Below, in pieces: positions 23,988-36,068 of a stretch of DNA of 64,000 nucleotides. How positions within the stretch are numbered: the stretch's first letter is position 1; each line of letters begins with the position of its first letter. Position numbers and translations under genes: made by a program. The notes under the pieces were generated by a model that was not told the DNA's origin, ran no database searches, and saw only the letters and a program-made list of their open reading frames with translations. Source of the DNA: an uncultured Acidobacteriota bacterium (GTDB taxonomy: Bacteria; Acidobacteriota; Thermoanaerobaculia; UBA5066; DATFVB01); the NCBI GenBank assembly GCA_963813155.1, contig CAWEYG010000003.1, forward strand, positions 32,001-96,000. Direction: 5' to 3'.

Positions 23988-25670
23988 ATGGCCCAGCAAT
24001 ACATCTTCACGATGCAGAACCTTCGGAAGGTCGTTCCGCCGCACAAGGAGATCCTGCGCGGGGTGTGGCTGTCGTTCTTTCCCGGCGCGAAAATCGGCGT
24101 CCTCGGCCTGAACGGCTCCGGGAAGTCGACGGTGCTTCGCATCATGGCGGGCACCGAGAAGGAGTTTCAGGGCGAGGCGTTTCCGGCGGAAGGAACGCGG
24201 ATCGGCTTTCTCGAACAGGAACCGAAGCTCGACGCCGCGAAGGACGTCCTCGGCAACGTCGAGATGGGAGTCGCCGGAACGCGGAAGCTCCTGCAAAAAT
24301 TCGACGAGCTGAACGAGAAGCTCGGCGCCGAGCTCTCGGACGCCGAGATGGAAAAAGTGATGGCCGAGCACGGAAGAGTGCAGGACGCGATCGACGCGTC
24401 GGGGGGATGGGACCTCGACAAGACGCTCGAGATCGCGATGGACGCGCTGCGCTGTCCTCCCCCCGACGCGGCCGTTTCGAAGATCTCGGGAGGGGAGAAA
24501 CGGCGCGTCGCGCTGTGCCGCGTTCTGCTCGAGAAGCCGGACCTCCTGTTGCTCGACGAGCCGACGAACCATCTCGACGCGGAGTCCGTCGCCTGGCTCG
24601 AGCGCTACCTCGCGGAATATCCCGGCACCGTCGTCGCGGTGACGCACGACCGCTATTTCCTCGACAACGTCGCGCAGTGGATCCTGGAGCTCGACCGCGG
24701 CGCCGGGATTCCGTGGAAGGGGAACTACTCCTCCTGGCTCGAACAGAAAGAGGCGCGGCTCCAGCAGGAGGAAAAGCAGGAGTCCGCGAAACGCCGGCAG
24801 CTTCAGAGAGAACTGGAATGGGTGCGGATGGCTCCTCGCGCGCGGCATGCGAAGAGCAAAGCGCGCCTGCAGGCGTACGAAGAGCTGCTTTCCGACCAGG
24901 GGCCCGAATCCCGCAACGAAACCCAGGAAATCTACATTCCGCCGGGGCCGCGGCTGGGCGACGTGGTCGTCAAGGCGGACGGCGTCCGGAAGAGCTTCGG
25001 CGACCGCCTGCTGATGGAGAACATGAGCTTCGACCTGCCGCGCGGCGGCATCGTGGGAGTCATCGGGCCGAATGGCGCGGGGAAAACGACGCTCTTTCGA
25101 ATGATCATGGGGGAAGAGAAACCGGACGCCGGCGTCCTGAAGGTGGGAGAGACCGTCGTCGTCTCCTACGTCGACCAGAACCGGGAACGCCCCGAGGGGT
25201 CCAAGACCGTGCACGACGAGCTCTCGGAAGGGCAGGACCTCGTCGTTCTCGGCAAGCGCTCGATCCCCTCGCGCGCGTATTGCGCGATGTTCAACTTCAA
25301 GGGCGCCGACCAGCAGAAGCGCGTCGCGGATCTCTCGGGCGGAGAGATGAACCGGCTCCACCTCGCGCGAACGCTGAAGAAGGGCGGAAACCTGCTGCTG
25401 CTCGACGAGCCGACGAACGACCTCGACGTCGAAACCCTCCGGGCCCTCGAGGACGCCATTCTGAATTTCGGCGGTTGCGCCGTCGTGATCTCGCACGACC
25501 GCTGGTTTCTCGACCGCATCGCGACGCACATCCTCGCCTTCGAAGGCGACTCGCAGACCGTCTGGTTCGAGGGCAACTTCGCGGACTACGAAGCCGACCG
25601 CAAGCGGCGCCTCGGGGCGGAGGCCGACCGCCCCCACCGGATCAAGTACAAGAAGCTGACGCGGACCTGA
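23988..25670 (+). CDS. ettA: Energy-dependent translational throttle protein (ABC-F)
   Basis: 'LSFFPGAKIGVLGLNGSGKST', two ABC domains, 'ELEWVR', C-terminal 'PHRIKYKKL'. Confidence 0.95.
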   Translation: MAQQYIFTMQNLRKVVPPHKEILRGVWLSFFPGAKIGVLGLNGSGKSTVLRIMAGTEKEFQGEAFPAEGTRIGFLEQEPKLDAAKDVLGNVEMGVAGTRKLLQKFDELNEKLGAELSDAEMEKVMAEHGRVQDAIDASGGWDLDKTLEIAMDALRCPPPDAAVSKISGGEKRRVALCRVLLEKPDLLLLDEPTNHLDAESVAWLERYLAEYPGTVVAVTHDRYFLDNVAQWILELDRGAGIPWKGNYSSWLEQKEARLQQEEKQESAKRRQLQRELEWVRMAPRARHAKSKARLQAYEELLSDQGPESRNETQEIYIPPGPRLGDVVVKADGVRKSFGDRLLMENMSFDLPRGGIVGVIGPNGAGKTTLFRMIMGEEKPDAGVLKVGETVVVSYVDQNRERPEGSKTVHDELSEGQDLVVLGKRSIPSRAYCAMFNFKGADQQKRVADLSGGEMNRLHLARTLKKGGNLLLLDEPTNDLDVETLRALEDAILNFGGCAVVISHDRWFLDRIATHILAFEGDSQTVWFEGNFADYEADRKRRLGAEADRPHRIKYKKLTRT

Positions 25671-26022
25671 GGCGCGCCAGCGCGGCGATACATCGATCGA
25701 ATACGGGCGCGTCTCGCCGCGCCTGATCCGTCCAGACGAAACGAACCGCGAGGGTCGCGAAGAGAAAATTGAGAGCTCCAAAGAGGATCCAGACGGCAAT
25801 CGTTGCAGGCCTGCCGCCTGCTTCGATGCGCAGTCCCGCCCGCATGCAGGCCCACGCGAACACGAGAAGGATCGCAACGATCTCGTAGGCGATCCGGAGA
25901 ACTCGCAGGGACAAAACGCCGCCGATCGCGCGGCCCGTCAACCTCCTGAGTAGCCACACCAGCGGCACGAGCAGCGCCGGCAGCAGGTACGAGGTGAACA
26001 CAGCTTCGACGAACTGTTTCAT
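25642..26022 (-). CDS. Hypothetical membrane protein
   Basis: Three hydrophobic segments from ATG 26022; no motif. Confidence 0.45.
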   Translation of the reverse strand: MKQFVEAVFTSYLLPALLVPLVWLLRRLTGRAIGGVLSLRVLRIAYEIVAILLVFAWACMRAGLRIEAGGRPATIAVWILFGALNFLFATLAVRFVWTDQARRDAPVFDRCIAALARLRSASASCT

Positions 26023-26080
26023 CTGGTGCAGCAGTCGGATCAACATTGAAATCAGTATAAGAGACCGGCATACTTCCGCC

Positions 26081-26302
26081 ATGAAAAACGCACACTGGCT
26101 CGGCAGGGCGCTCCTGTTCGGTTTCGGGTGGATTTTCTTTTCCGCGATCGTCTACGTGCTCCTGGACGCTTTCGGTGTCTGGCCGGCGATTCCCCGGGGC
26201 CTGGCTGAGGCGTTCGAGGTTCTGACTGGCGCCGTGCTCGTCTTCGAGCTCTTCGGACATCTCGTGCTCTCGGCCGGGGGCGCGCGCTCGCTGCCTTCCT
26301 GA
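26081..26302 (+). CDS. Small hypothetical membrane protein
   Basis: 73 aa, two TM segments; CATACT 6 nt before the ATG. Confidence 0.5.
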   Translation: MKNAHWLGRALLFGFGWIFFSAIVYVLLDAFGVWPAIPRGLAEAFEVLTGAVLVFELFGHLVLSAGGARSLPS

Positions 26303-26311
26303 ATTTTTGGC

Positions 26312-26361
26312 TTGCATTTATTCCGGCGTCAGGTTACGGTTTTAATCAAGTCTTAAGGAGG
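26312..26361 (+). promoter_or_regulatory. Putative promoter and RBS of the cupredoxin-cyc2-cco operon
   Basis: TTGCAT (26312-26317), 17-nt spacer, TACGGT (26335-26340); AAGGAGG SD before ATG 26366; AT-rich. Confidence 0.45.
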
Positions 26362-26365
26362 CCTG

Positions 26366-27103
26366 ATGCCGCTTACTCGAACCCTTTGGACTCCTACCCG
26401 TTGCCTGATGGCGGTTCTCGCGCTCTTCGTGGTCCGACCGGCGGCTTCTTACGAGGCCGAAAAGGTGACAAACGGCGGCTCCATCGCCGGAGCAGTCAAG
26501 CTCGCGGGCGCGGCGCCGGCGGTCGCGCCGATCAAGACAACGAAAAATCAGGACTACTGCGGTATGAGCCTCGCCAACCCTCTCTACGAGGTGGGACCCG
26601 GCGGCGGGCTGGCCAACGTCGAGGTGTACATCAAGGACATCGCGAAGGGAAAGGCGAAGCCGGCCGATCCGATCGTTCTGACCAACGACCATTGCATGTT
26701 CAGCCCGCGCGTTCAGGGAGCTGTCGTCGGGCAGCAGATCAAGATCGTGTCCGACGATCCGATCCTCCACAATACACACCCGCAGATCGCGGCGACGAAC
26801 GCGACGCTTTACAACGTCGCCTTGCCTTTCAAAGGCTTTTCGGTCTTGAAGCCCCTTCTTCCGCAGGCGGGGTTGCTCAGGGTCAAGTGCGACGTGCACG
26901 AGTGGATGCGCGCCTGGATCCTCGAGCTCGACAATCCCTACTTCACGACGACCGACAAGAGCGGAAGCTTCACTCTCAAGGACGTTCCTCCGGGGACCTA
27001 TACGGTCATTGCGTGGCACGAAGTGATGGGCGAAAAAACGGGGACCGTTACGGTGGCTGCGGGCAAACCGGCTGCCCTGAATTTTCAGTTCGCCGCGAAG
27101 TAA
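26366..27103 (+). CDS. Periplasmic cupredoxin-like protein with C-terminal carboxypeptidase-regulatory-like beta-sandwich
   Basis: Signal peptide; 'CMFSPRVQ', 'DPILHNTH' and amicyanin-type C-x2-H-x2-M loop 'KCDVHEWM'; 'DVPPGTYTVIAWHE'. Confidence 0.8.
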   Translation: MPLTRTLWTPTRCLMAVLALFVVRPAASYEAEKVTNGGSIAGAVKLAGAAPAVAPIKTTKNQDYCGMSLANPLYEVGPGGGLANVEVYIKDIAKGKAKPADPIVLTNDHCMFSPRVQGAVVGQQIKIVSDDPILHNTHPQIAATNATLYNVALPFKGFSVLKPLLPQAGLLRVKCDVHEWMRAWILELDNPYFTTTDKSGSFTLKDVPPGTYTVIAWHEVMGEKTGTVTVAAGKPAALNFQFAAK

Positions 27104-27123
27104 CAGACGTCAGGAGGTGACCC

Positions 27124-28443
27124 ATGGGTCGACTCGGGTTCAAACTCGGCTCGGGACTCTGGCTTGCCATCGTCGTCGCGCTGTTCAGCGCTCCCGCCTA
27201 CGGAATCCCGGCGTTCGCCCGCAAGACCGGGCTTCGTTGCACGAGCTGCCATGAATCCTGGCCGGTTCTGAACGACTTCGGCCGGGCCTACCGGGACAAC
27301 GGCTATCAGCTTCGCCTGGGGAAGGACGATCCCACGACGACGCCGCCGGGCTACTGGCCGGTCGCGATCCGGGTCACCCCCCATTACGAATACAACACGC
27401 TCTCGAATCAGGACACGGATCAGGGTTTGAAGAACTTCAAGACGGGCGGTGTGGCGGACGGCGCCATGGATCTCCTCACCGCCGGCACGGTGACGAACAA
27501 TGTGTCGTTTCTCGTCGTGCCGACAGGCTTCGCCTCGGACGGCTCCGTGAGTCTCGAGTCGTACTGGATTTACCTGACACGTTTCCTCTTCAAGTCCGAC
27601 TGGTTCAACGTTCGGATCGGGAAGCATGAAGTGGACCTCCCGGTTTCGGCGCACCGTTCGATCAACCTCACGAATGGCTACCTGATCTACGGGTACCACC
27701 CGGGGGCCGATTCCGACGCCGGGGCTCCGTTCGACCTCGGAGCCAATCAACGGGGCGTCGAGTTCACCGGGCATGACCGAGGCTCGATGACGCGGTACAA
27801 CTTCACGGTCTTCAATGCGAACGACTCGAGCTCTTCGCGCAACGCGTTTGACTCGGCATCGTTCTACGGACACGTCCAGAAATACTGGCAGTTCGATTCG
27901 ACTGCTCTCTCGGAAGTCGAAGTCGGAGCTTTCGGCGCGTGGGCGAACTATCCGACGACCGCATTCACGTCGGGCGGTGAACCGATTGCCGGGGAGGGCG
28001 GAAATCTCAAGACCACGTCGCGCTATGGAGCCGAGGCCCAGTTCTGGCTCGGGCCTTCCGCCACGCCACTGCACTTCGAGCTTGTCGCGGCACACGGCAG
28101 CGACGAGAGGGGCCTCTACGGCGGAAACGCGAGCCGCAACGGGACCTGGAACGGCGGCTTTCTCGAAGCGGTCTGGGTGCCGGCGAAAGACCTGCTGCAC
28201 TGGGGTCTCTTCGGCCGCTACGACCTGATCCGCAATTCGAATCAACCGATCCCCGGCACTCCAAAGGACTTCGACGACCAGGACCAGATCACCGGCGGAA
28301 TCAAGTACACCTTCAACTACAACAATCGGGCGGAATACGCGCTCCATGCCGAATATCAGACGAACCGGATGAAAAAGATCGCGTCCGACGGATCCGACGT
28401 TCGCGCAAATACCGTTTTCGTGGGCATCGACTTCGCCTTTTGA
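27124..28443 (+). CDS. cyc2: Cyc2-type fused monohaem cytochrome c-porin
   Basis: Signal peptide then IPAFARKTGLRCTSCHESWPVLNDFGRAYRDNGY (PxFAR..CxxCH..P.L..FGR...NGY Cyc2 signature); beta-strand-rich body; C-terminal Phe (GIDFAF). Confidence 0.85.
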   Translation: MGRLGFKLGSGLWLAIVVALFSAPAYGIPAFARKTGLRCTSCHESWPVLNDFGRAYRDNGYQLRLGKDDPTTTPPGYWPVAIRVTPHYEYNTLSNQDTDQGLKNFKTGGVADGAMDLLTAGTVTNNVSFLVVPTGFASDGSVSLESYWIYLTRFLFKSDWFNVRIGKHEVDLPVSAHRSINLTNGYLIYGYHPGADSDAGAPFDLGANQRGVEFTGHDRGSMTRYNFTVFNANDSSSSRNAFDSASFYGHVQKYWQFDSTALSEVEVGAFGAWANYPTTAFTSGGEPIAGEGGNLKTTSRYGAEAQFWLGPSATPLHFELVAAHGSDERGLYGGNASRNGTWNGGFLEAVWVPAKDLLHWGLFGRYDLIRNSNQPIPGTPKDFDDQDQITGGIKYTFNYNNRAEYALHAEYQTNRMKKIASDGSDVRANTVFVGIDFAF

Positions 28444-28453
28444 GGAGGTACCG

Positions 28454-29220
28454 ATGAATCGCTTCGGACAACGAATTCTCGTTCTGGCGATCGGATCTCT
28501 CCTGGTGGGCTCGCTCGCTCTCGCAGCCTTGGGGGCTTCCGGCGATCCGGGGCGCGGCAAGCTCGTGTACCAGCGCTATTGCCTGTCCTGTCACGGCGAG
28601 GCCGGAAACGGAGCGGGTGAGTACGCGGAGTGGACGACCCCGAAGCCGCGGGATTACCGGCAGGGCACGTTCAAGTGGCGGTCGACGCCTTCGGGATCTC
28701 TGCCGACCGACGCCGATCTCGAGAAAACGCTCGAGGGTGGCCTGTACGGAACGGCGATGCCCACCTGGTTCGCGATCGGCCACCGTTCTCGGATGGACGT
28801 GATCTCGTACATCAAGACCTTTTCCGATCGCTGGCAGAAGGAGAAGCCTCAGGCATCGATCGTGATTCCTTCGGAGCCGGCCAACGATTCGGCTTCGATC
28901 GAGCGCGGGAAGGCGCTCTACGTGAAGTATCAGTGCGTTCAGTGCCACGGCGAGAAGGGGCTGGGAGACGGCGCGTCCTCGCACGAGCTCAAGGACGACT
29001 GGGGCAACCCGATCGTCCCGTACAACCTGACGGAGGGGCACATCAAGTGCGGAGACACGCGCAGCGGACATCTACCGCGTATTCATCACCGGGCTGAGCG
29101 GAACTCCGATGCCTTCGTACGCCGATTCCATCAATCAAGGACGACGCCTGGGACCTGGCGCACTTCATCCTCAGCCTGGGCCCTCCTGGTCCGCGGAGGA
29201 CTCCCAAGCAGGGACCCTAG
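28454..29220 (+). CDS. Dihaem class I cytochrome c, frameshifts near 29050 and 29135
   Basis: Signal/anchor; CLSCH + 'GTAMP', CVQCH + 'GTPMP'; reconstructed end '...DAWDLAHFILSLG...QGP' TAG 29218-29220. Confidence 0.85.
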
Positions 29221-29234
29221 GGCAGGGGAGCGCG

Positions 29235-29396
29235 ATGCCATCACCGAAAGTGGAAAACGATGAGGTTCACCGGTACGAGTCTTCCGGAATCGAGGAACGG
29301 CAGGGAAAGATTCCGGCGTGGCTGATTGGGGTGATCGTCGCGCTGACGATCTGGATGGTGTACTACCTTCTTCGTTTCTGGACGCCGCCGCTGTGA
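29235..29396 (+). CDS. Stand-alone CcoP N-terminal (FixP_N-like) membrane microprotein, 53 aa
   Basis: 'VHRYESSGIEERQGKIPAWLIGVIVALTIWMVYY' resembles the CcoP anchor (H.xDGI.E....P.W......TI.W...Y); SD GGGGAG. Confidence 0.65.
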   Translation: MPSPKVENDEVHRYESSGIEERQGKIPAWLIGVIVALTIWMVYYLLRFWTPPL

Positions 29397-29412
29397 GCGG
29401 AACTCGACGCCG

Positions 29413-30832
29413 ATGAGCGAGACGGCGACGAAGGTTCCCGGCGACGAGCTGGTCGATCAGCGAGTCGTCCTCCAATTTCTCCTTTCGGGAGCTTTCTGGC
29501 TCGTCTTCGCTCCCACGATCGGAGTTATTCTCTCGATCAAGTTCAATTACTACGACTTTCTCGGCGGGATTTCGTGGCTGACCTGGGGAAGGCTACGGCC
29601 CGTGCACGTGATGGGCGTGGTTTTCGGCGCCTTCACGACCACGATTTTCGGCCTGACCTATTACATGGTGCCGCGCCTCTGCGGCGTGCGGATGTACAGG
29701 GAAAACTGGAGCCGATGGATTTTCTGGATCTGGAACCTGGGATTCACGGCGGCTCTCGTGTCGCTGCCGCTCGGTCAGAATCTCGGTATCGAGGCGGGAG
29801 AGTTCCCGACCTGGGCGAACATCCTCGTCGAGATCGTCTTCGCGATGATCACGGTTCAGGTGGTCATGACGGTGATCCGGCGCAAAGAGAAGCTTATTTA
29901 CGTCACACTCTGGTACCTGACCGCGGCCTACATCTGGACGACCTTCAACTACGCTTTCGGGCACTTTCTCCTTCCGTTCCATTTCGCCGGCATCAACAAC
30001 GCCGCGATGCACGGTCTCTACATCCACTACGTCGTGGGTTTGTGGATCACGCCGGCCGGGCTCGCGGTGATCTATTACTTTCTTCCGCTCGCGGCGAAGA
30101 CAGCCGCTCTACAGCCACAGGCTCTCGTTGATCGGCTTCTGGTCTCTGGCGTTCTTCTATCCTTTCGTCGGCACCCATCACTACATCTACAGCCCGATTC
30201 CCTACTGGACGCAGACCATCGCGATCGTCGCATCGATGATGCTGATCATTCCGGTGTGGACCGTGATCCAGAACTTCTACGGAACGATGGTCGGGAATTG
30301 GAAGCGCTTCCAGGAGTCGTACACGGCGAAGTTCCTGATCGTCGGCGCGTTTTTCTATCTGTTGGGCTGTTTTCAGGGATCGACGGAGGCCCTCCGCGAG
30401 GTTCAGCGGCTCACGCACTTCACGGATTTCGTGATCGCCCACTCGCATCTGACGGTCTTCGGTACTTTCATTCTCTGGGTCACGGCGGGCCTCTACTATG
30501 TGATCCCGCGCCTTTCGGGCCGTGAGCTCTATTCGAAGAAAGCTGGCCCAGTGGCACTACTGGCTGACGGTCGGAGGGTTCTCGGTCATGGCGGCGACTT
30601 TGACCCTGCAGGGACTCCTTCAGGGCACCGATGCTTCAGGGAGGGGCGGACTTCGTCGACTCGATGGTGGCGATGAAGCCCTACTGGTTCACGCGCACGC
30701 TGGCCGGAATGACGATGGATATCGGCGCATTCTCGGGCATGTGGAATCTCTACCGGACTGCGATGGAGGGAACGCCGATCTCGCGACGCGCAGGCCGTCG
30801 GCGTGTTGGCGCCGGAGCCGCGTTGGACATAG
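29413..30832 (+). CDS. ccoN: cbb3-type (C-family) haem-copper oxidase subunit I, several frameshifts
   Basis: 'WGRLRPVH', 'YIHYVVGLW', 'YPFVGTHHY', 'HFTDFVIAHSHL' across frames 29413, 30128, 30522, 30631; probable stop TAG 30830-30832. Confidence 0.85.
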
Positions 30833-30837
30833 CGCCG

Positions 30838-32584
30838 ATGAAGAGAATCGAGCCGATCATCCTCATCGCAGCGCTCGGCTTCTATGCGCTCGCGATGACG
30901 AGCCAGGGATCCTTCTGCGTGGTTGGAAAAGAAGACGACGCGGCCGGGAACGGTCCGCACGACTCACGGGGGACGATCGTGGCCTCTCCGCGCGCGCACG
31001 CCGTCGGAAGAGAGCGGCCGGAAGATCTACATCCGCGAGGGCTGCTGGTACTGCCATTCGCAATTCATCCGCCCGGTGAATCGCGACACGGACAAATGGG
31101 GCCCGGTTTCGCAGGCGGGGGAAATGGCGTTACGACTTGCCACAGATGCTCGGGACCCGTCGAATCGGGCCCGAGCTCTCGCGCGAAGGGCAACCGGCGA
31201 TCCGACGAGTGGCACTATGCGCACCACTGGAATCCGCGCGCGGTCGAGCCGGAATCGATCATGCCGTCCTTCGACATGGCTTTACCGGAGCGATCCCGCA
31301 CACGATCGGCGGGTGCTCGGGATTTCATCCGAGAAGTTCGACGCGAACCACGACGGCCGTGTAACGAAGAGCGAGCTCGACAAGAACGGCGACGGCAGCG
31401 TGACGCCGGACGAGCTCCCGCCGGACTGGAAACAGCTGGACGTCTGGCCGGTGAACGCCGACGGCACGGTCGGGGACGGAGTCGTCGATATGCACGACTA
31501 CGGCCCGTCAGCCCACAGAGGAGATGGTCGGCGTCGAGGCGTATCTTCAGAAGATCGGAACGTCGATCGGAGACTGGCGAGTCTGGGAGCCGTGGCCGAC
31601 CCAGCGAGCGGCCCGCGCCGACCGAGCCGCTCGCGCTTCGCCTCTCGCGCGGGAAGGTTGATCTTCGAGAAGAAGTGCTCAGGGCTGCCACGGCCTCTTC
31701 GGAAACGGGCGGCTCTGACCGCGGACGCAAAGACGCTCATCGAACTTCAACGACGCGTACCACTTCCTGAACCCGCAGCCGCGAAACTTCACGTTCGGAG
31801 TTTTCAAGAGCCGAACGACGCCCTCGGGCGCGCTTCCCGCGCGACGAAGACATCTTTCGGACGATCACGCGCGGAGTTCGAAATGGCCAGATCATGCCGG
31901 CATGGGGCAATCCCCAGGACGGACACTTTCTTCCGCAGCAGGATCGCTGGGACCTGGTGGACTACGTCAAGACGTTCTCGGATCGGTTCAAGAGGAGCGG
32001 TGATCCCGCCGCCCATCGCGATTCCGGTTCCTCCGTTTCCCACGGTGAAGGAGGCTCCGCCGGAAGTGCTGGGCGAAGGGCGAAGGGTCTTTCGAATTCT
32101 TCAATGCTGGGGCTGTCACGGAATGACGGGAAGGGGAGACGGCCCGTCGGCCTCCGCTCTTCTGGACGACTGGGAGGTTCCGATCCGGCCATTCGATTTC
32201 ACGACGGGGAACTTCAAGTTCGGCGATTCTCCCGCCGACGTCTATCGGACCTTCAACACCGGCTTGAACGGCACGCCGATGCCCTCGTACTACGATTCGA
32301 TCCTCTTTCCCCGCGAAGCCCTTTCCGACATGGGACCGTTTCGGCAGGTTTTCCGCGGAAGGCCCGTTTTTTCCGAAGCGGAGATCGAGGAGCTGAAATC
32401 ATACGTCGCAACCATCCCGACGTCCGAGGAGCTTTCGAAAATGAGCGATCTGGAAAAAGGTGCTCTTGCCGATCGCCGCCGCTGGGCCCTCGTCTACTAT
32501 GCGCTTTCGCTTGCGCGTCCGGCGGGGGCTCCTCCGGTTCCGACCTCCGCGGGATTCCCGGTTCTTGCCTCGAGGAAGAAATAA
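30838..32584 (+). CDS. ccoO: cbb3-type oxidase subunit II fused to an EF-hand insert and a dihaem cytochrome c module, many frameshifts
   Basis: 'GRKIYIREGCWYCHSQFIRP', 'GTRRIGPELSREG', 'WHYAHHWNPR...PESIMP'; DANHDGRVTKSEL/DKNGDGSVTPDEL; CS(G)CH and CWGCH with Met ligands. Confidence 0.8.
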
Positions 32585-32755
32585 ATGGACGTCACGATCT
32601 ATCTGTTCTTCATGGCGCTCCTCATGGCTCTCGCGGCCTGGTGCATCTTTCTCTGGGCGATTCGCGACGGCCAGTTCGGGGACATCGAGGAGCCGAAATA
32701 TCAGATCGTGCCGAGGCCTCCGGCTCCCTCCGGAACAACGCCACCGGTAGGATGA
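32585..32755 (+). CDS. ccoS: cbb3 oxidase maturation protein CcoS/FixS
   Basis: MDVTIYLFFMALLMALAAWCIFLWAIRDGQFGDIEEP, matching the 'FxWAxxxGQFxDxE' signature; not in the ORF track (56 aa). Confidence 0.85.
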   Translation: MDVTIYLFFMALLMALAAWCIFLWAIRDGQFGDIEEPKYQIVPRPPAPSGTTPPVG

Positions 32756-32764
32756 ACCGTCGCC

Positions 32765-33481
32765 TTGCACCATAGCCTTCCCGTATCCGGAGATCTCGGC
32801 CTCGTCTTCCTCGCGTCACTTCTCGGAGGCGTCCACTGTGCCGGGATGTGCGGCCCCTATGTTGCCATTTGCTCGTCCCGAATCGTCGGGCCGAACGCCT
32901 CTTCGCGCCGGGTGAGGAATGCCCTGCGGCTCCTCTTCAATGCCGGTCGGGTTACGACGTACGTCTCGATCGGCGTTCTGGCGGGCGCGTTCGGCCAGAT
33001 CGCTGGAGCCGTCGGCCAGGCGAGAGGCTATCCGGGAGGCGTCGCGATCGCGGCGGGGGTGTTCGCGCTGTTCTTCGCCCTCTCGCTCGCGGGCGCCGCT
33101 CCCTCGGTCGAGAGCCTTGCCGCGAGCCTCGGGCTCAACCGGCTGCTGCGAGCGGGGAGTCTCGAGGCTTTTCATGCCCCACCGTATCTATCGGCATTTC
33201 TTCTCGGAAATCTCCAGGGGCTCTTTCCGTGCGCACTCGTTTACGCAGGCGCGAGCCGTGCGGCCGCCTCAGCATCGCCGGGGAGGGGAGCGCTCACGAT
33301 GTTGGTGTTCGGTCTCGGAACGCTCCCGGCGCTCCTCGCGCTGACCTTCGCTTCGAAGGCCGTGCCGGAATGGATGCGTTCGCGGCGAGGTGCCGCGGGC
33401 CTGGTGGGGGCGCTGGGAATCCTCCTCGTGCTGCGCGGCCTCGCGGGATGGGGACTGATTCCGCACACCCGCCTCTGGTGA
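32765..33481 (+). CDS. DsbD_2 / TauE-SafE-like membrane protein commonly linked to cco clusters
   Basis: 'GGVHCAGMCGP', 'FNAGRVTTY', 'GLFPCALVY', 'FGLGTLPALL'. Confidence 0.85.
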   Translation: MHHSLPVSGDLGLVFLASLLGGVHCAGMCGPYVAICSSRIVGPNASSRRVRNALRLLFNAGRVTTYVSIGVLAGAFGQIAGAVGQARGYPGGVAIAAGVFALFFALSLAGAAPSVESLAASLGLNRLLRAGSLEAFHAPPYLSAFLLGNLQGLFPCALVYAGASRAAASASPGRGALTMLVFGLGTLPALLALTFASKAVPEWMRSRRGAAGLVGALGILLVLRGLAGWGLIPHTRLW

Positions 33482-33509: not shown

Positions 33510-34368
33510 ATGAGACTTGCGCTGCCTTCCCGCCTCTCGTCCGGCCTCCCGCTGCTCCTCGATTCCGGAATGGGAACCGAGCTGGAGCGGCGGGGGATGG
33601 AGCTCGATCTCCCGCTGTGGTCGGCGAGGGCGCTTCTTGAGAAGCCGGATCTCGTGCGGGATATCCATCGCGACAACGTCGCGGCCGGCGCCGACATCCT
33701 CACGGCGAACACGTTTCGGACGCAGCGGGGGACCCTGCGCGCCGCGGGTATCGACGAGAGCCGCGCGGGAGCGCTCACGCGATTGGCGGTCTCGCTCGCG
33801 CGAGATGCCGCCCGCGAAGCCGGGCGAGAGGTCTTCGTGGCGGGGTCGGTCGCGCCGCTGGCCGACTGCTACCGGCCCGACCTCGTCGCGGATCGCGCGA
33901 CGTTGGAACGGGAACACGCGGCGCACGTCGAAAATCTGCTGGAGTCGGGCGTCGACCTGATCCTCGTCGAGACCATGAACACCGTCCGCGAGGCCCGATC
34001 GGCGGCCGCCGCGGCGGACGAGCGCGTCCCCGTCATCGTGTCGTTCGTCACGAACGGGTACGGCGCCCTCCTGTCGGGAGAGCCTCTCGCGGACGGGGTA
34101 GGAGCGATTCTGCCCGTCCGGCCCGTCGCGATCGGCGTGAATTGCGTTCCTTTTCCAGCGATTGGAAGCGGAGGTCGGCCGTCTCTCGGCCGCAGCTCCC
34201 GGCGTTCCGATCTCCGTGTACGCGAACACGCTCTCCGGCGACACGACGCCGGAGGCGTACGCGAGCGCTGCGAGGGACTGGGTGCGCGCGGGTGCCCGCA
34301 TCGTGGGCGGATGCTGCGGCACGACACCGGAGCACGTTCGGGCGATTCGCGTCGGAGCGGCCGCGTGA
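33510..34368 (+). CDS. Homocysteine S-methyltransferase family protein, frameshift near 34160
   Basis: 'LDSGMGTEL', 'AGADILTANTF', 'ETM', 'GVNC', then 'YAN...VGGCCGTTPEH' in frame 34162..34368. Confidence 0.85.
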
Positions 34369-34817
34369 GACGCACGCTCGGTTTCCAGGAGCCCGGATCG
34401 CAGCAGACACTTCGCGAGGGCCTGGCGGAATTTCGGGCATCGCTTTCCGACGAAGACCGGCAGGACGGCGCTCTCGCCCGGGATCTTTTGCTTCACGACG
34501 CCTGTCACGTCGTCTTCGGCCTCGGGACGTCGGTCTCGGACGACGCCGTCGTCGACGCCTGGATCGTGTTCGGGACGGACGTTCACGCGCGAAGTTACCT
34601 CCGCGCGCTCTGGAACAGTCGGGCGCTCGGGACGCTCGTCGAGCGCGACGGCGTCGCGCGGGTCGTCGCCGGGCTCGTTCGGGCCATTCCGAGGGTTGTC
34701 TCGACGCTCCGGCGCGCGCGCAAGATGCCCAGAAAATGGCCCTGGTCCGGCGCCGACCGCTATCTCGATTCGCCCCTCGTCGAGATCCGGTCGGAATACG
34801 GGATTCGACTGACGTGA
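34365..34817 (+). CDS. Hypothetical protein with Coq4-like HDxxH motif
   Basis: 'HDACHVVFGLGTSVSDD', 'YLDSPLVEIRSEYGI'; GTG overlaps previous stop. Confidence 0.65.
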   Translation: MRRTLGFQEPGSQQTLREGLAEFRASLSDEDRQDGALARDLLLHDACHVVFGLGTSVSDDAVVDAWIVFGTDVHARSYLRALWNSRALGTLVERDGVARVVAGLVRAIPRVVSTLRRARKMPRKWPWSGADRYLDSPLVEIRSEYGIRLT

Positions 34818-36068
34818 AAATCTCCGACCTGCGTCGCGAAGGTGAGGCGCGCGTCGCGGCGACGGTCGTCTGGGAGGATTCGGATCGGCCGAAACCTCGA
34901 GTTGTTCTTCGAAACGGATCCCGAGTTCGGCGCCGATCTGGAGGCGGACCCGAACGCGTTTCTGGCGGCCGCCTGTTTTCCGGCGATCCGACACGGCGAA
35001 GAACGCATCGCGCTCGAAGGCCCGATCAGTCCGGAACTGCGCGACGGGCTCGGCGCGGTGGCCGGGCTCTTCCGCTCCTGGTACGGCGAAGATCGCCGTC
35101 CGATTCGCATCGAGTCGGACCGGGACGCGGCGGCGTTGTACCCGCGGACGCCGCCGAGGGCTGCCGCGTTTCTCTCCGGCGGGATCGACTCGCTGTTCAC
35201 GCTGAGGTCCAACCGGCTCGGGATTCCCCGGGATCACCCCGCTTCGATTTGCGATCTCGTGTGGCTCGTCGGCAGGGAATTCCCGGGAACCGAGGACTCC
35301 TCCCGGGCCGTCGCGCATGCCCGGCGCCTGCGGGAGAGTCTTGCGGACGTCGCGAGGGATGCCGGAGCGACCCTCGTGCCGGTTCGGACCAACGCGAGGC
35401 GTCTCGAGCCGGATCTCCTGTTCTTCGGATATGAATTCCAGGGCGCGTACGTGGCGAGCGCGGCTCACGTCTTGCGCCGTCGCTTCGACGTCATCTCCTT
35501 CTCTTCCGGGTGGGACATGGCGCATCTGATCCCGTGGGGAACGCACCCCCTGGTCGATCCGAGTCTCGGGACGGAGGCGGTCAGGATCCGGCACGAGGGA
35601 GTCGCCTACGGAAGGGCCGAGAAGCTCTCGCGCCTGGCCGATTGGGACGCCGCGATCCGAAACCTCGTCGTCTGCAACGAGAATCCCTCCGGCGACGCGC
35701 CGAACTGCGGCGAATGCTTCAAGTGCGTCGAGACGATGACCCTGCTCGTTTCCCGGGGCCTCTTCGGGAGCGCGAAACAGTTTCCCGCCTCCGAGATCCG
35801 CGCGGGAATGATCGCGAATCTCACGCTCGCTCCGAACCTCCGGTCGTCGTTTTCCGACTACTCTGCGTTCTGGGAAGCGATGGTTCCCGACCTGGAAGCC
35901 CGCGGGCGAGGGGATCTCGTCCAGGCGATCCGGGACAAGCTGGCCGAGGCGCGGCGCCTGGAGGCGTGGCTTCGCGAACGCGACTGGAAAGGGGTGCTCA
36001 AACGGGCCGATCGCCGCTTCGCCGGAGGTCTGGGGCTTCGGGCGTTGCGGGCGATCCGAAGACGTTAA
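34814..36068 (+). CDS. PP-loop (adenine nucleotide alpha-hydrolase) protein with Cys cluster, frameshift near 34890
   Basis: 'FLSGGIDS', 'PWGTHP', 'VC-x10-CGECFKC'; N-terminus VKISDLRREGEARVAATVVWEDS in a second frame. Confidence 0.7.

Follow-up and report, generated by a model that had tools for sequence, protein, structure and literature searches.

A conserved acidobacterial gene cluster predicted to join a Cyc2-type cytochrome-porin to a cbb3-type oxidase

We identified an eight-gene cluster in an uncultured member of the Acidobacteriota that, as a whole, is best explained as a genuine and conserved respiratory operon encoding a chain from a Cyc2-type cytochrome-porin to a cbb3-type oxidase, with the frame-breaking indels in its deposited sequence representing errors of the assembly consensus (rough probability 0.55). 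The likeliest role of this chain is a putative microaerobic oxidation of Fe(II) as an extracellular donor, with the electron path, the donor, and co-transcription of the genes being predicted features.

In the window (the whole 64,000-nucleotide stretch of DNA analyzed), the cluster forms a co-directional block on the + strand, encoding in order a cupredoxin, a Cyc2-type haem-porin, a dihaem cytochrome c, a FixP_N-like microprotein, CcoN, a trihaem CcoO fusion, CcoS, and DsbD_2, with successive intergenic gaps of 20, 10, 14, 16, 5, 0, and 9 nt. The initial annotation had described eight tightly spaced co-directional genes, which is what we found, and the gene identities it gave were recovered with Pfam and NCBIfam models (CarboxypepD_reg, 2 Cytochrom_C, COX1/ccoN, FixO/ccoO, FixS/ccoS, and DsbD_2). 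It had also placed the genes behind a single promoter and Shine-Dalgarno sequence. The latter can be read directly from the sequence as AAGGAGG (26353–26360, + strand), 5 nt ahead of the ATG of the first gene at 26366, but the promoter gained no support, as the scan for sigma-70-like promoters returned a single match (26046–26074, 9/12) against 1.2 expected by chance. The picture of a self-contained, intact operon does not hold for the deposited sequence, in which the dihaem cytochrome c, CcoN, and CcoO genes are not open. On the − strand, divergently transcribed, lies a gene for a small membrane protein of 146 aa (25642–26082) with no Pfam family; it shares 39% identity (E 2e-18) with a 164-aa ORF between the CcoO and DsbD_2 genes of locus L019, and its homologue lies within the cluster in other relatives.

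The first gene (26366–27103, + strand; 245 aa, intact) encodes a cupredoxin whose predicted type-1 copper domain resembles amicyanin and is followed by a C-terminal CarboxypepD_reg-like domain (Pfam match at residues 193–241). Pfam cupredoxin models gave no match to this 245-aa protein itself; Copper-bind (PF00127) does match a paralogue from this genome above its cut-off. The AF2 model (pLDDT 92) has a cupredoxin beta-sandwich fold, for which Foldseek listed amicyanin, plastocyanin, pseudoazurin, and AcoP (E 3e-5 to 1e-3, target TM approximately 0.5–0.75), with the amicyanin match reaching TM 0.71 at an rmsd of 2.3–2.8 A. The candidate ligands read from the sequence (H135, H138, C175, H178, and M181) were invariant in all 26 aligned homologues. 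Their C-x2-H-x2-M spacing, which we take to be amicyanin-like, recurred in 68 of 73 cupredoxin ORFs recovered from 80 Cyc2 loci, some of these ORFs being cut by the end of the locus. Model and motif thus agree with the initial naming of an amicyanin-type copper protein, an amicyanin-like cupredoxin with a putative type-1 copper site.

The second gene (27124–28443, + strand; 439 aa, intact) encodes a Cyc2-type fused monohaem cytochrome-porin, assigned from motifs, AF2, and Foldseek. Published criteria for Cyc2, as given in the available text of Keffer et al. 2021 (PMC8406198), are a signal peptide, a single CXXCH, PXFAR[Q/K][T/Y] upstream and PXL downstream of it, and a length of at least 365 aa. 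In the translation, a hydrophobic N-terminus ends in SAPAYG, with an AF2 helix at residues 4–21; C39 and C42 of the single CXXCH are the only 2 cysteines of the protein; PAFARKT is present upstream; and PVL starts at the fourth residue past the haem His. In the present protein, as in each of the 23 aligned relatives, 3 residues separate PAFARKT from CXXCH, as opposed to the motif "5 amino acids upstream" in the text of Keffer et al. (PMC8406198). Across the alignment of 23 sequences, P29, F31, C39, C42, H43, P47, and L49 were invariant, and A30 and R33 nearly so. The remainder was modeled as a beta-barrel (pLDDT 82, pTM 0.81), with OprP (2o4v, E 6.6e-12) as the top Foldseek match and PorB and OprO (4rjw) also listed; OprP and OprO are the templates named for the 16-strand porin barrel of Cyc2 in that text (PMC8406198). 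The protein had 1583 representative relatives at E ≤ 0.001, and in the nearest Atlas clusters the commonest phylum was Nitrospirota or Acidobacteriota. The porin carries the published Cyc2 sequence signature and a predicted OprP/PorB-like fold, so the Cyc2 cytochrome-porin of the initial annotation is retained.

Downstream follow a predicted periplasmic dihaem class-I cytochrome c in a Cyc1/c4-like position (28454–29220, + strand; broken), with 2 Pfam Cytochrom_C domains and CXXCH at residues 43 and 161, and a single-helix, FixP_N/CcoQ-like microprotein of 53 aa (29235–29396, + strand), identified by a weak FixP_N match below the cut-off (E 2.6e-4) and by its conservation at the equivalent position in 10 of 10 relatives' loci (60–69% identity). 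CcoN, the catalytic subunit of a cbb3-type oxidase (29413–30832, + strand), and CcoO with a fused CcoP-like dihaem domain (30838–32584, + strand) are both frame-broken, the former with COX1 matches on 2 pieces and the latter with FixO pieces in 2 frames. Family scores for both were taken on the intact orthologues of the relative G006. Its CcoN (82–95% identical to the window pieces) matched PF00115 over the full length (E 3.2e-78) and TIGR00780 ccoN (E 1.9e-77, 261 bits against an equivalog cut-off of 583) far ahead of CtaD (1.6e-18), and its CcoO matched FixO (E 3.1e-43) and TIGR00781 (E 1.3e-40, 139.5 bits against a cut-off of 200.65), so that neither reached the NCBIfam equivalog level. The last 2 genes encode the assembly protein CcoS/FixS (32585–32755, + strand; 56 aa; Pfam FixS E 1e-10, TIGR00847 above cut-off) and a DsbD_2 family membrane thiol-reductant transporter (32765–33481, + strand; 238 aa; Pfam DsbD_2 E 2.1e-38).

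The CcoN, CcoO, and CcoS families are those of the canonical CcoNOQP cbb3 oxidase, from which the cluster differs in lacking a separate dihaem CcoP at the locus; CcoO instead carries the 2 cytochrome c domains as a fusion, and the FixP_N-like, anchor-like peptide is encoded alone. A further difference is an EF-hand pair inserted in the FixO domain of the intact G006 protein, which combines FixO with both cytochrome c domains; three haems are present in intact relatives. These family matches identify the enzyme, already called a cbb3 oxidase in the initial annotation, as a predicted C-type (cbb3) haem-copper oxidase with a CcoO-dihaem fusion.

Within the order, 10 of the 41 genomes carry full-length homologues, G000 included. 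The initial annotation had proposed a synteny survey, and in all 6 relatives examined the order cup-cyc2-dihaem-ccoN-ccoO-dsbD was kept, with the DsbD_2 gene at the equivalent place. With the extra bases of the deposited sequence (see below) skipped, all cluster genes gave a dN/dS of 0.04–0.12 against the sister genome (intact Cyc2 0.037, intact cupredoxin 0.109) and are under purifying selection. Given the shared order and low dN/dS, the cluster is genuine and conserved, and its clustering is beyond chance. Across the 80 loci, a dihaem cytochrome lay directly downstream of Cyc2 in 78 and a cupredoxin adjacent to it in 66 (7 upstream, 59 downstream), and Cyc2, dihaem cytochrome c, and cupredoxin form a core module. 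A haem-copper oxidase was encoded on the same strand in 47 loci, with 5 of these being cbb3 and 42 having an A-type COX1 downstream of the core.

In the proposed mechanism, the Cyc2-type outer-membrane cytochrome-porin would accept electrons from a soluble donor outside the cell, for which Fe(II) is the likeliest candidate, and pass them to the periplasmic dihaem cytochrome c and/or the amicyanin-like cupredoxin. These carriers would feed a dedicated cbb3-type oxidase, composed of CcoN, the CcoO-dihaem fusion in place of CcoP, and the small anchor peptide, which would reduce O2 at low oxygen tension, while CcoS and DsbD_2 may serve in maturation of the oxidase and cytochromes. A pathway from Cyc2 through Cyc1 to a cbb3 or aa3 oxidase has precedent in neutrophilic iron oxidizers, according to passages of PMC7029218.

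Less probably, though as the most credible of the alternatives, the chain may be intact and serve another extracellular partner (reduced humic substances, Mn(II), a mineral surface, or a syntrophic partner) or export electrons outward, with the Cyc2-like protein acting as a general outer-membrane electron gate and not as an Fe(II) oxidase. Published Acidobacteriota Cyc2 homologues are placed in cluster 3, and the available text of Keffer et al. (PMC8406198) calls the function of this cluster the most uncertain among the Cyc2 clusters. The hosts are soil heterotroph-like lineages, some genomes have the three-gene core with no oxidase attached (as at locus L031), and in the present genome the core also lies beside a cytochrome b/multihaem cytochrome locus. 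Against this, the 3 biochemically tested members of the family named in that text (A. ferrooxidans Cyc2, Leptospirillum Cyt572, and Mariprofundus Cyc2PV-1) all oxidize Fe(II) (PMC8406198), and the O2 reductase genes directly linked to the core at more than half of the 80 loci favor an inward flow from donor to O2. Fe(II) oxidation thus stays the likeliest role of the chain.

In gene content and order, the cluster can be compared with the rus operon of Acidithiobacillus ferrooxidans, where the gene for an outer-membrane Cyc2 stands together with those for a dihaem cytochrome c, a cupredoxin, and a haem-copper oxidase, in the published order cyc2-cyc1-cup-coxBACD (relevant passage of PMC10654088). 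The cluster described here differs in having a cbb3 instead of an aa3 oxidase, in placing the cupredoxin gene first and adding a CarboxypepD_reg-like domain to its product, and in its host, a soil acidobacterium and not an acidophilic proteobacterium. No rusticyanin gene was found in the window, and its order (cup-cyc2-cyt c-cbb3) is not that of cyc2-cyc1-cup-coxBACD-rus. In the wider family, the rus-operon analogy drawn by the initial annotation proved stronger than claimed, with the three-gene core preceding a same-strand A-type oxidase in the 42 loci counted above and the one locus annotated, L053 (cyc2-cyt c-cupredoxin-COX2-COX1-COX3-COX3-COX4), following the rus order.

The Cyc2-Cyc1-cbb3 pathway of Zetaproteobacteria and Gallionellaceae has an equivalent arrangement in three functional layers, with an oxidase whose high affinity suits Fe(II) oxidation under microoxic conditions, as described in part of PMC7029218; its hosts are autotrophs with Cyc2 of cluster 1, unlike the cluster 3 homologues published for Acidobacteriota. 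Our literature search returned no report of the Cyc2 pathway genes of these 2 groups in one operon with an oxidase. In the Leptospirillum Cyt572-Cyt579-cbb3 chain, a cluster 3 member passes electrons through periplasmic cytochromes to a cbb3 oxidase, as is proposed here for the Cyc2-type porin; Cyt572 falls into one network cluster together with homologues from Acidobacteria and Nitrospira (PMC10654088, in part), and the dihaem cytochrome here weakly matches NCBIfam cytochrome579 below threshold (E 1.4e-8, 34.7 bits against a cut-off of 280). That system differs in having genes described as unclustered (PMC10654088) and in being acidophilic, and its model includes no cupredoxin. AcoP, which partners the oxidase of A. 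ferrooxidans, is a cupredoxin whose gene lies between those for the cytochrome and the oxidase, and it resembles the present protein at the level of fold (7z3g and 7z3f among the fold matches, E approximately 1e-3). The best fold matches here are nevertheless amicyanin and plastocyanin, and the protein has an extra C-terminal beta-sandwich domain.

The deposited sequences of the dihaem cytochrome c, CcoN, and CcoO genes carry approximately 29 frame-breaking indels between 29060 and 31994, almost all of them additional single bases. Two extra bases (approximately 29060 and 29136) break the dihaem cytochrome c, CcoN has 6 phase changes relative to the sister MAG G001 (30101, 30536, 30629, 30787, 30832, and 30838; net +4), and CcoO has 21 (30911 to 31994); at the protein level, tblastn with the intact G006 CcoN as query recovered CcoN as four reading-frame pieces in three frames. 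Compared with G001, the window at 29059–31993 has extra stretches of one base (21), two bases (3), 4 bases (1, coding), and 7 bases (1, intergenic), and lacks 5 stretches of 1–2 bases and 2 longer intergenic ones (3 and 7 bases); none of the extra bases listed with their context fell within a homopolymer. The extra bases are absent from relatives and from independent short-read soil contigs, including one of 9366 nt and approximately 95% identity whose alignment has 30 gaps (among the places listed, 11 of one base and one of two). These contigs derive from an approximately 95% identical relative, a strain other than the source, and so give no strict proof of intact genes in the source cell. 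Once the extra bases were skipped, there were 0 in-frame stops, and dN/dS against the sister genome was 0.103 for the dihaem cytochrome c, 0.051 for CcoN, and 0.065/0.094 for CcoO.

We consider the indels very probably to be assembly consensus errors and not decay, and the genes are predicted to be intact in the source organism. A true pseudogene cluster, with cytochrome c, CcoN, and CcoO inactivated in the strain and the chain dead, would be the face-value reading of the deposited sequence, and the two other intact oxidases and the second Cyc2-like locus of the genome would make loss of the operon tolerable. Such decay is nonetheless quite improbable. Bacterial gene decay is usually deletion-biased, whereas here extra bases predominate, with no large deletions; neither the absence of stops nor the low dN/dS fits it; and the damage ends sharply at borders independent of genes, leaving Cyc2, cupredoxin, CcoS, and DsbD_2 untouched. 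Similar patches break unrelated genes elsewhere, with ORFs broken on the same contig (C3:169–172 kb) and at three other indel-dense places in G001, where the present genome is intact. A local patch of insertion errors would thus lead three of the eight genes to be automatically annotated as pseudogenes or missed, and surveys of the presence or absence of respiratory genes in long-read MAGs like this one may give misleading results.

Also distinctly unlikely is an ordinary cbb3 operon supplied by periplasmic donors of its own, in which the haem-porin would have a non-energy role such as surface Fe(II) detoxification or solute uptake; the cytochrome and cupredoxin adjacencies across the 80 loci point to one functional unit around the porin-cytochrome. 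In favor of an ordinary cbb3 operon, a member of the cupredoxin family is also encoded next to an A-type oxidase at a site without Cyc2 in the vicinity (C1), so the cupredoxin may be a general oxidase partner, and the 90.8%-complete genome yielded no autotrophy marker. RuBisCO in particular was not found there, so autotrophic iron oxidation via the Calvin cycle is not indicated. Together with the two ordinary A-type oxidases of the genome, this makes the host look like an aerobic heterotroph, for which the Cyc2 chain would be at most auxiliary.

Acidobacteriota rank among the commonest bacteria in soil. The initial annotation called them a group not known for Fe(II) oxidation; we know of no demonstrated iron-oxidizing isolate in the phylum, and for isolates the remark stands. 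For genomes it does not, as Cyc2 homologues in Acidobacteriota MAGs have already been published (PMC9671151, PMC13594681, and PMC10654088, each in part).

In MAG surveys, such cyc2 matches are listed as isolated marker genes. In the present cluster, cyc2 lies within a conserved operon together with its putative carriers in the periplasm and a high-affinity oxidase of its own, and in many further soil lineages this core is linked to aa3 oxidases, turning a vague marker match into a concrete pathway open to testing. Tentatively, and with somewhat less than even confidence, Cyc2, dihaem cytochrome c, and cupredoxin may constitute a portable electron-uptake cassette in abundant soil phyla such as Acidobacteriota, Gemmatimonadota, and Myxococcota, plugged into differing acceptors, namely an aa3 oxidase (in rus gene order), a cbb3 oxidase (in the taxonomic order to which this acidobacterium belongs), and perhaps a cytochrome b complex. 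Were this the case, a large number of presumed soil heterotrophs would in fact be cryptic lithoheterotrophs that oxidize Fe(II) and are tuned to differing oxygen levels.

Among the window ORFs, the coding capacity of interest at 26366-33481 lies on the + strand throughout, and the 8 genes listed in the initial annotation were recovered there, with order, strand, spacing, and Pfam/NCBIfam domains all in agreement. From first to last they encode a 245-aa protein whose C-terminal part is a CarboxypepD_reg-like domain, a 439-aa porin to which neither Pfam nor NCBIfam assigns a family, a dihaem cytochrome c, a hydrophobic 53-aa peptide weakly resembling the CcoP N-terminal anchor, CcoN, a long CcoO-like protein, CcoS/FixS, and a DsbD_2 protein, separated by 20, 10, 14, 16, 5, 0, and 9 nt. 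We infer that these genes are co-transcribed. The single promoter and SD sequence proposed for them were borne out in the SD part only, with AAGGAGG located 5 nt upstream of the first ATG, whereas the operon promoter scan returned nothing above chance (1 match vs 1.2 expected). Terminator-like matches numbered 14 against 7.1 expected and fell mostly within genes. The source MAG, G000, comprises 23 contigs and 3.81 Mb (90.8% complete, 3.76% contamination), with the window on contig 3, and its description as a probable acidobacterium is supported by the sister MAG of the same genus, G001, which is Acidobacteriota, and by a porin copy at 55% identity in a Thermoanaerobaculia MAG.

Several further features of the region were observed. 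The operon (26000-32000) has a G+C content of 0.61-0.62 vs approximately 0.67 in its surroundings, and its nucleotide identity to G001 is 80%, the blocks on either side reaching 87-91%. G001 also carries approximately 2.4 kb, missing in the window (25670-26366), that separates the operon from the ABC-F gene and includes an ORF with a DKTGT motif resembling a P-type, possibly copper, ATPase. Downstream (33510-34817 and 34842-36068), the family match of a 435-residue homocysteine S-methyltransferase ORF is confined to residues 15-216, and this gene and the next form a single 710-aa ORF in G001; the ORF of the window may be frame-shifted or fused.

The presence of the 8 genes was upheld, but 3 of them, encoding the dihaem cytochrome c, CcoN, and CcoO, are not open in the deposited sequence. 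Intact proteins of a relative, G006, align to the window in pieces only, with 3 frames needed for the dihaem cytochrome c, 4 pieces across 3 frames for CcoN, and many pieces for CcoO. The window-G001 DNA alignment covers 8 kb at 80.6% identity, and within 29059-31993 the window has 21 single-base and 3 two-base extra stretches, along with one of 4 bases in coding sequence and one intergenic of 7 bases, and it lacks 5 stretches of 1-2 bases as well as 2 longer intergenic ones (3 and 7 bases). None of the extra bases printed with context lies in a homopolymer run. Relative to G001, the dihaem cytochrome gene shows 2 phase changes, the CcoN gene 6 (net +4), and the CcoO gene 21 (net +18), the G001 CcoO itself having one break. 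The microprotein gene shows 2 mutually compensating changes 5 bases apart, the Cyc2-type porin gene none, the CcoS gene 2 within its divergent last codons, and the cupredoxin gene (gene 1) a few, all in the divergent signal-peptide region of an open ORF.

We consider these frame breaks to be assembly errors with a probability of roughly 0.85-0.9, judging from independent contigs, selection, the direction and borders of the damage, and comparable patches elsewhere. Short-read soil-metagenome contigs, one of which (9366 nt) spans 28400-32697 and differs there by 229 substitutions and 30 gaps, lack the extra bases at 29059, 29135, 30099, 30542, 30633, 30734, 30785, 30838, 30961, 30976, 30994, and other positions; 12 of the soil-contig gap places are among those listed (11 of one base and one of two), and 20 are further ones. 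Three sequencing runs of one study contained 0.10-0.15 of the sampled words. These contigs represent a relative approximately 95% identical and a different strain, carrying no evidence on the habitat or the source strain, which leaves some room for the operon of the source strain being a true pseudogene. We regard this as unlikely, given that the soil contigs are without the extra bases and that selection appears maintained. When the window was compared with G001 triplet by triplet in the G001 frame, skipping the extra bases, dN/dS in the broken genes was 0.103 (dihaem cytochrome), 0.051 (CcoN), and 0.065/0.094 (CcoO), with 0 stop codons, and in the intact genes 0.037 (Cyc2) and 0.109 (cupredoxin). 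It would be hard for approximately 29 independent mutations to build up while selection otherwise shows no relaxation. Further, the damage consists nearly throughout of insertions, and its borders are sharp and independent of gene limits. Across 160 kb of contig 3 aligned to G001, we identified further patches dense in frame-breaking indels: in 3 of them the G001 ORFs are shattered and those of G000 whole (counterparts of contig 3 positions 132800-134060, 189500-191000, and 193000-196000), and the opposite holds at 169-172 kb (169000-172000) and in the operon. ORFs are therefore broken in either MAG in different genes, suggesting that both assemblies contain local, patchy consensus errors. Programmed frameshifting and four-base decoding were rejected as causes, since the approximately 29 sites have no common sequence context and the extra bases are missing from relatives that encode these same proteins. 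A caveat on the operon is that its own deposited record is damaged.

Neither Pfam nor NCBIfam returned a family for the porin, because these libraries contain no Cyc2 model and not for want of relatives, which numbered 1583 representatives at E<=0.001. In the text of Keffer et al. 2021 (PMC8406198), Cyc2 proteins are defined as having a signal peptide and a single CXXCH, preceded by a PXFAR[Q/K][T/Y] motif unique to the family and followed by PXL, 365 or more residues, and a 16-strand porin for which OprP/OprO served as models. The porin has a hydrophobic leader, PAFARKT, PVL, and only 2 cysteines, both in its single CXXCH; P29, F31, C39, C42, H43, P47, and L49 are invariant in the porin and 22 relatives, down to 28% identity. 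Its AlphaFold2 model (pLDDT 82, pTM 0.81) predicts a beta-barrel behind a short helical N-terminal part, for which OprP (2o4v) is the best PDB match; PorB and further general porins rank next, and OprO (4rjw) is also among the matches. By these published sequence and modelled features the porin is a Cyc2-family protein, as initially proposed, apart from the motif spacing, which is 3 residues to the CXXCH in the porin and all aligned relatives and "5 amino acids upstream" in the text of PMC8406198. Acidobacteriota Cyc2 homologues are assigned to cluster 3 in a passage of PMC9671151, and the family describers' text calls the function of this cluster the least certain (PMC8406198).

For the gene 1 product, Pfam matched the C-terminal domain only and left the cupredoxin part unmatched. 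A model built from 26 homologues (pLDDT 92) matched amicyanin with a target TM of approximately 0.71 and an rmsd of 2.3-2.8 A over approximately 90 residues, along with plastocyanin, pseudoazurin, and purple cupredoxin, and with AcoP of A. ferrooxidans ranked lower. H135, H138, C175, H178, and M181 are invariant in all 26 aligned sequences, C-x2-H-x2-M occurs in 68 of 73 cupredoxin ORFs recovered from the best 80 loci (some being cut by the locus end), and a paralogue encoded elsewhere in G000 passes the Pfam plastocyanin/azurin model. On its predicted fold and conserved residues the product is a cupredoxin, in line with the amicyanin-type copper protein first suggested. A cupredoxin-CarboxypepD_reg paralogue with 37% identity lies on contig 1 of G000 (approximately 631600-634600, locus L110), directly upstream of an intact A-type COX1 in a neighbourhood that lacks Cyc2; cupredoxins of this family may partner oxidases in general.

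The CcoN of G006 gave a full-length COX1 match and is ccoN-like (TIGR00780 E 1.9e-77 vs CtaD 1.6e-18). Its intact CcoO has a FixO domain with an EF-hand pair followed by 2 cytochrome c domains, and the 3 CXXCH motifs in total agree with the trihaem character ascribed to this protein. The EF-hand pair inside FixO was also seen at 31250-31420 of the window (EF-hand_5 E 2.4e-7) and falls below the Pfam cut-off in G006 CcoO (residues 157-177). No separate CcoP was found in the operon, and the 53-aa peptide is kept in the loci of 10 of 10 relatives. The G006 dihaem cytochrome c (L016:3780-4541), orthologous to 28454-29220, gave a weak, sub-threshold match to the NCBIfam model "cytochrome 579" (E 1.4e-8, 34.7 bits vs a cut-off of 280). 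In Leptospirillum, cytochrome 579 is the periplasmic partner of Cyt572, but the G006 protein is only weakly similar to it, and the resemblance may be generic class-I cytochrome similarity.

Within the order, a porin match of some kind was identified in 22 of 41 genomes (G000 included) and a full-length homologue in 10 of 41, counting the unpublished G002. The arrangement cup-cyc2-dihaem-ccoN-ccoO-dsbD was held in order and strand in all 6 relatives fetched, of 9, and the small membrane protein encoded divergently upstream in the window (25642-26082) lies within the cluster in another relative. A wider pattern scan, with one genome per species, confirmed 543 porin relatives. The best 80 of these 543 loci were kept, all from MAGs, with no known iron oxidiser among them and by title mostly Acidobacteriota/Terriglobia, Gemmatimonadales, and Myxococcales/"Deltaproteobacteria," with a few others. 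The dihaem cytochrome directly follows the porin gene in 78 of these best 80 loci, and a cupredoxin homologue lies directly upstream in 7 and within 2 kb downstream in 59; a cbb3-type CcoN was nearby in 5, and an A-type COX1 lay 2-4 kb downstream in the same orientation in 42, with 6 of the 80 loci having <4.5 kb of downstream sequence. A complete-chromosome example (L053) reads TetR, cyc2, dihaem c, cupredoxin, COX2, COX1, COX3, COX3, COX4, the same gene order as the A. ferrooxidans rus operon, given as cyc2-cyc1-cup-coxBACD in the text of PMC10654088. The core of Cyc2, dihaem cytochrome c, and cupredoxin occurs by itself in a Hyphomicrobiales MAG. A second Cyc2-like gene, P0270 (449 aa, with the canonical PSFARQT...CNGCH...PEL), was seen on contig 3 of G000 (934001-950000, L109). 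Its same-strand neighbours encode a LuxR/PAS regulator, a cupredoxin passing Pfam Copper-bind, a Pyr_redox/4Fe-4S protein, cytochrome b, and multihaem cytochromes c, and the locus might serve as a branch leading to the quinone pool.

Acidobacteriota MAGs with Cyc2 homologues have already been published (PMC9671151, PMC13594681, PMC10654088), and the text of a 2026 review counts Acidobacteria among the lineages that include acidophiles oxidising Fe(II) (PMC13741234). Our literature search, confined to passages of papers, found no description of a cyc2-cytochrome c-cupredoxin-cbb3 operon in Acidobacteriota or of a wide rus-like arrangement in soil phyla. Because of the analogy to tested family members and the accepted model Cyc2 -> Cyc1 -> cbb3/aa3, as stated in the text of PMC7029218, we propose a chain from Fe(II) to O2. 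At the cell surface the porin-cytochrome would oxidise dissolved Fe(II); the electrons would cross the periplasm on the dihaem cytochrome, the cupredoxin, or both, and enter CcoN through the CcoO-dihaem fusion, and CcoN would reduce O2. Our data show the set of parts, their predicted folds, their linkage, and the selection on them, and the donor and electron path are inferred from these. RuBisCO was not found in G000 (90.8% complete), and 2 ordinary oxidases are present; if working, the chain is probably an adjunct to a heterotrophic lifestyle and not a basis for autotrophy.
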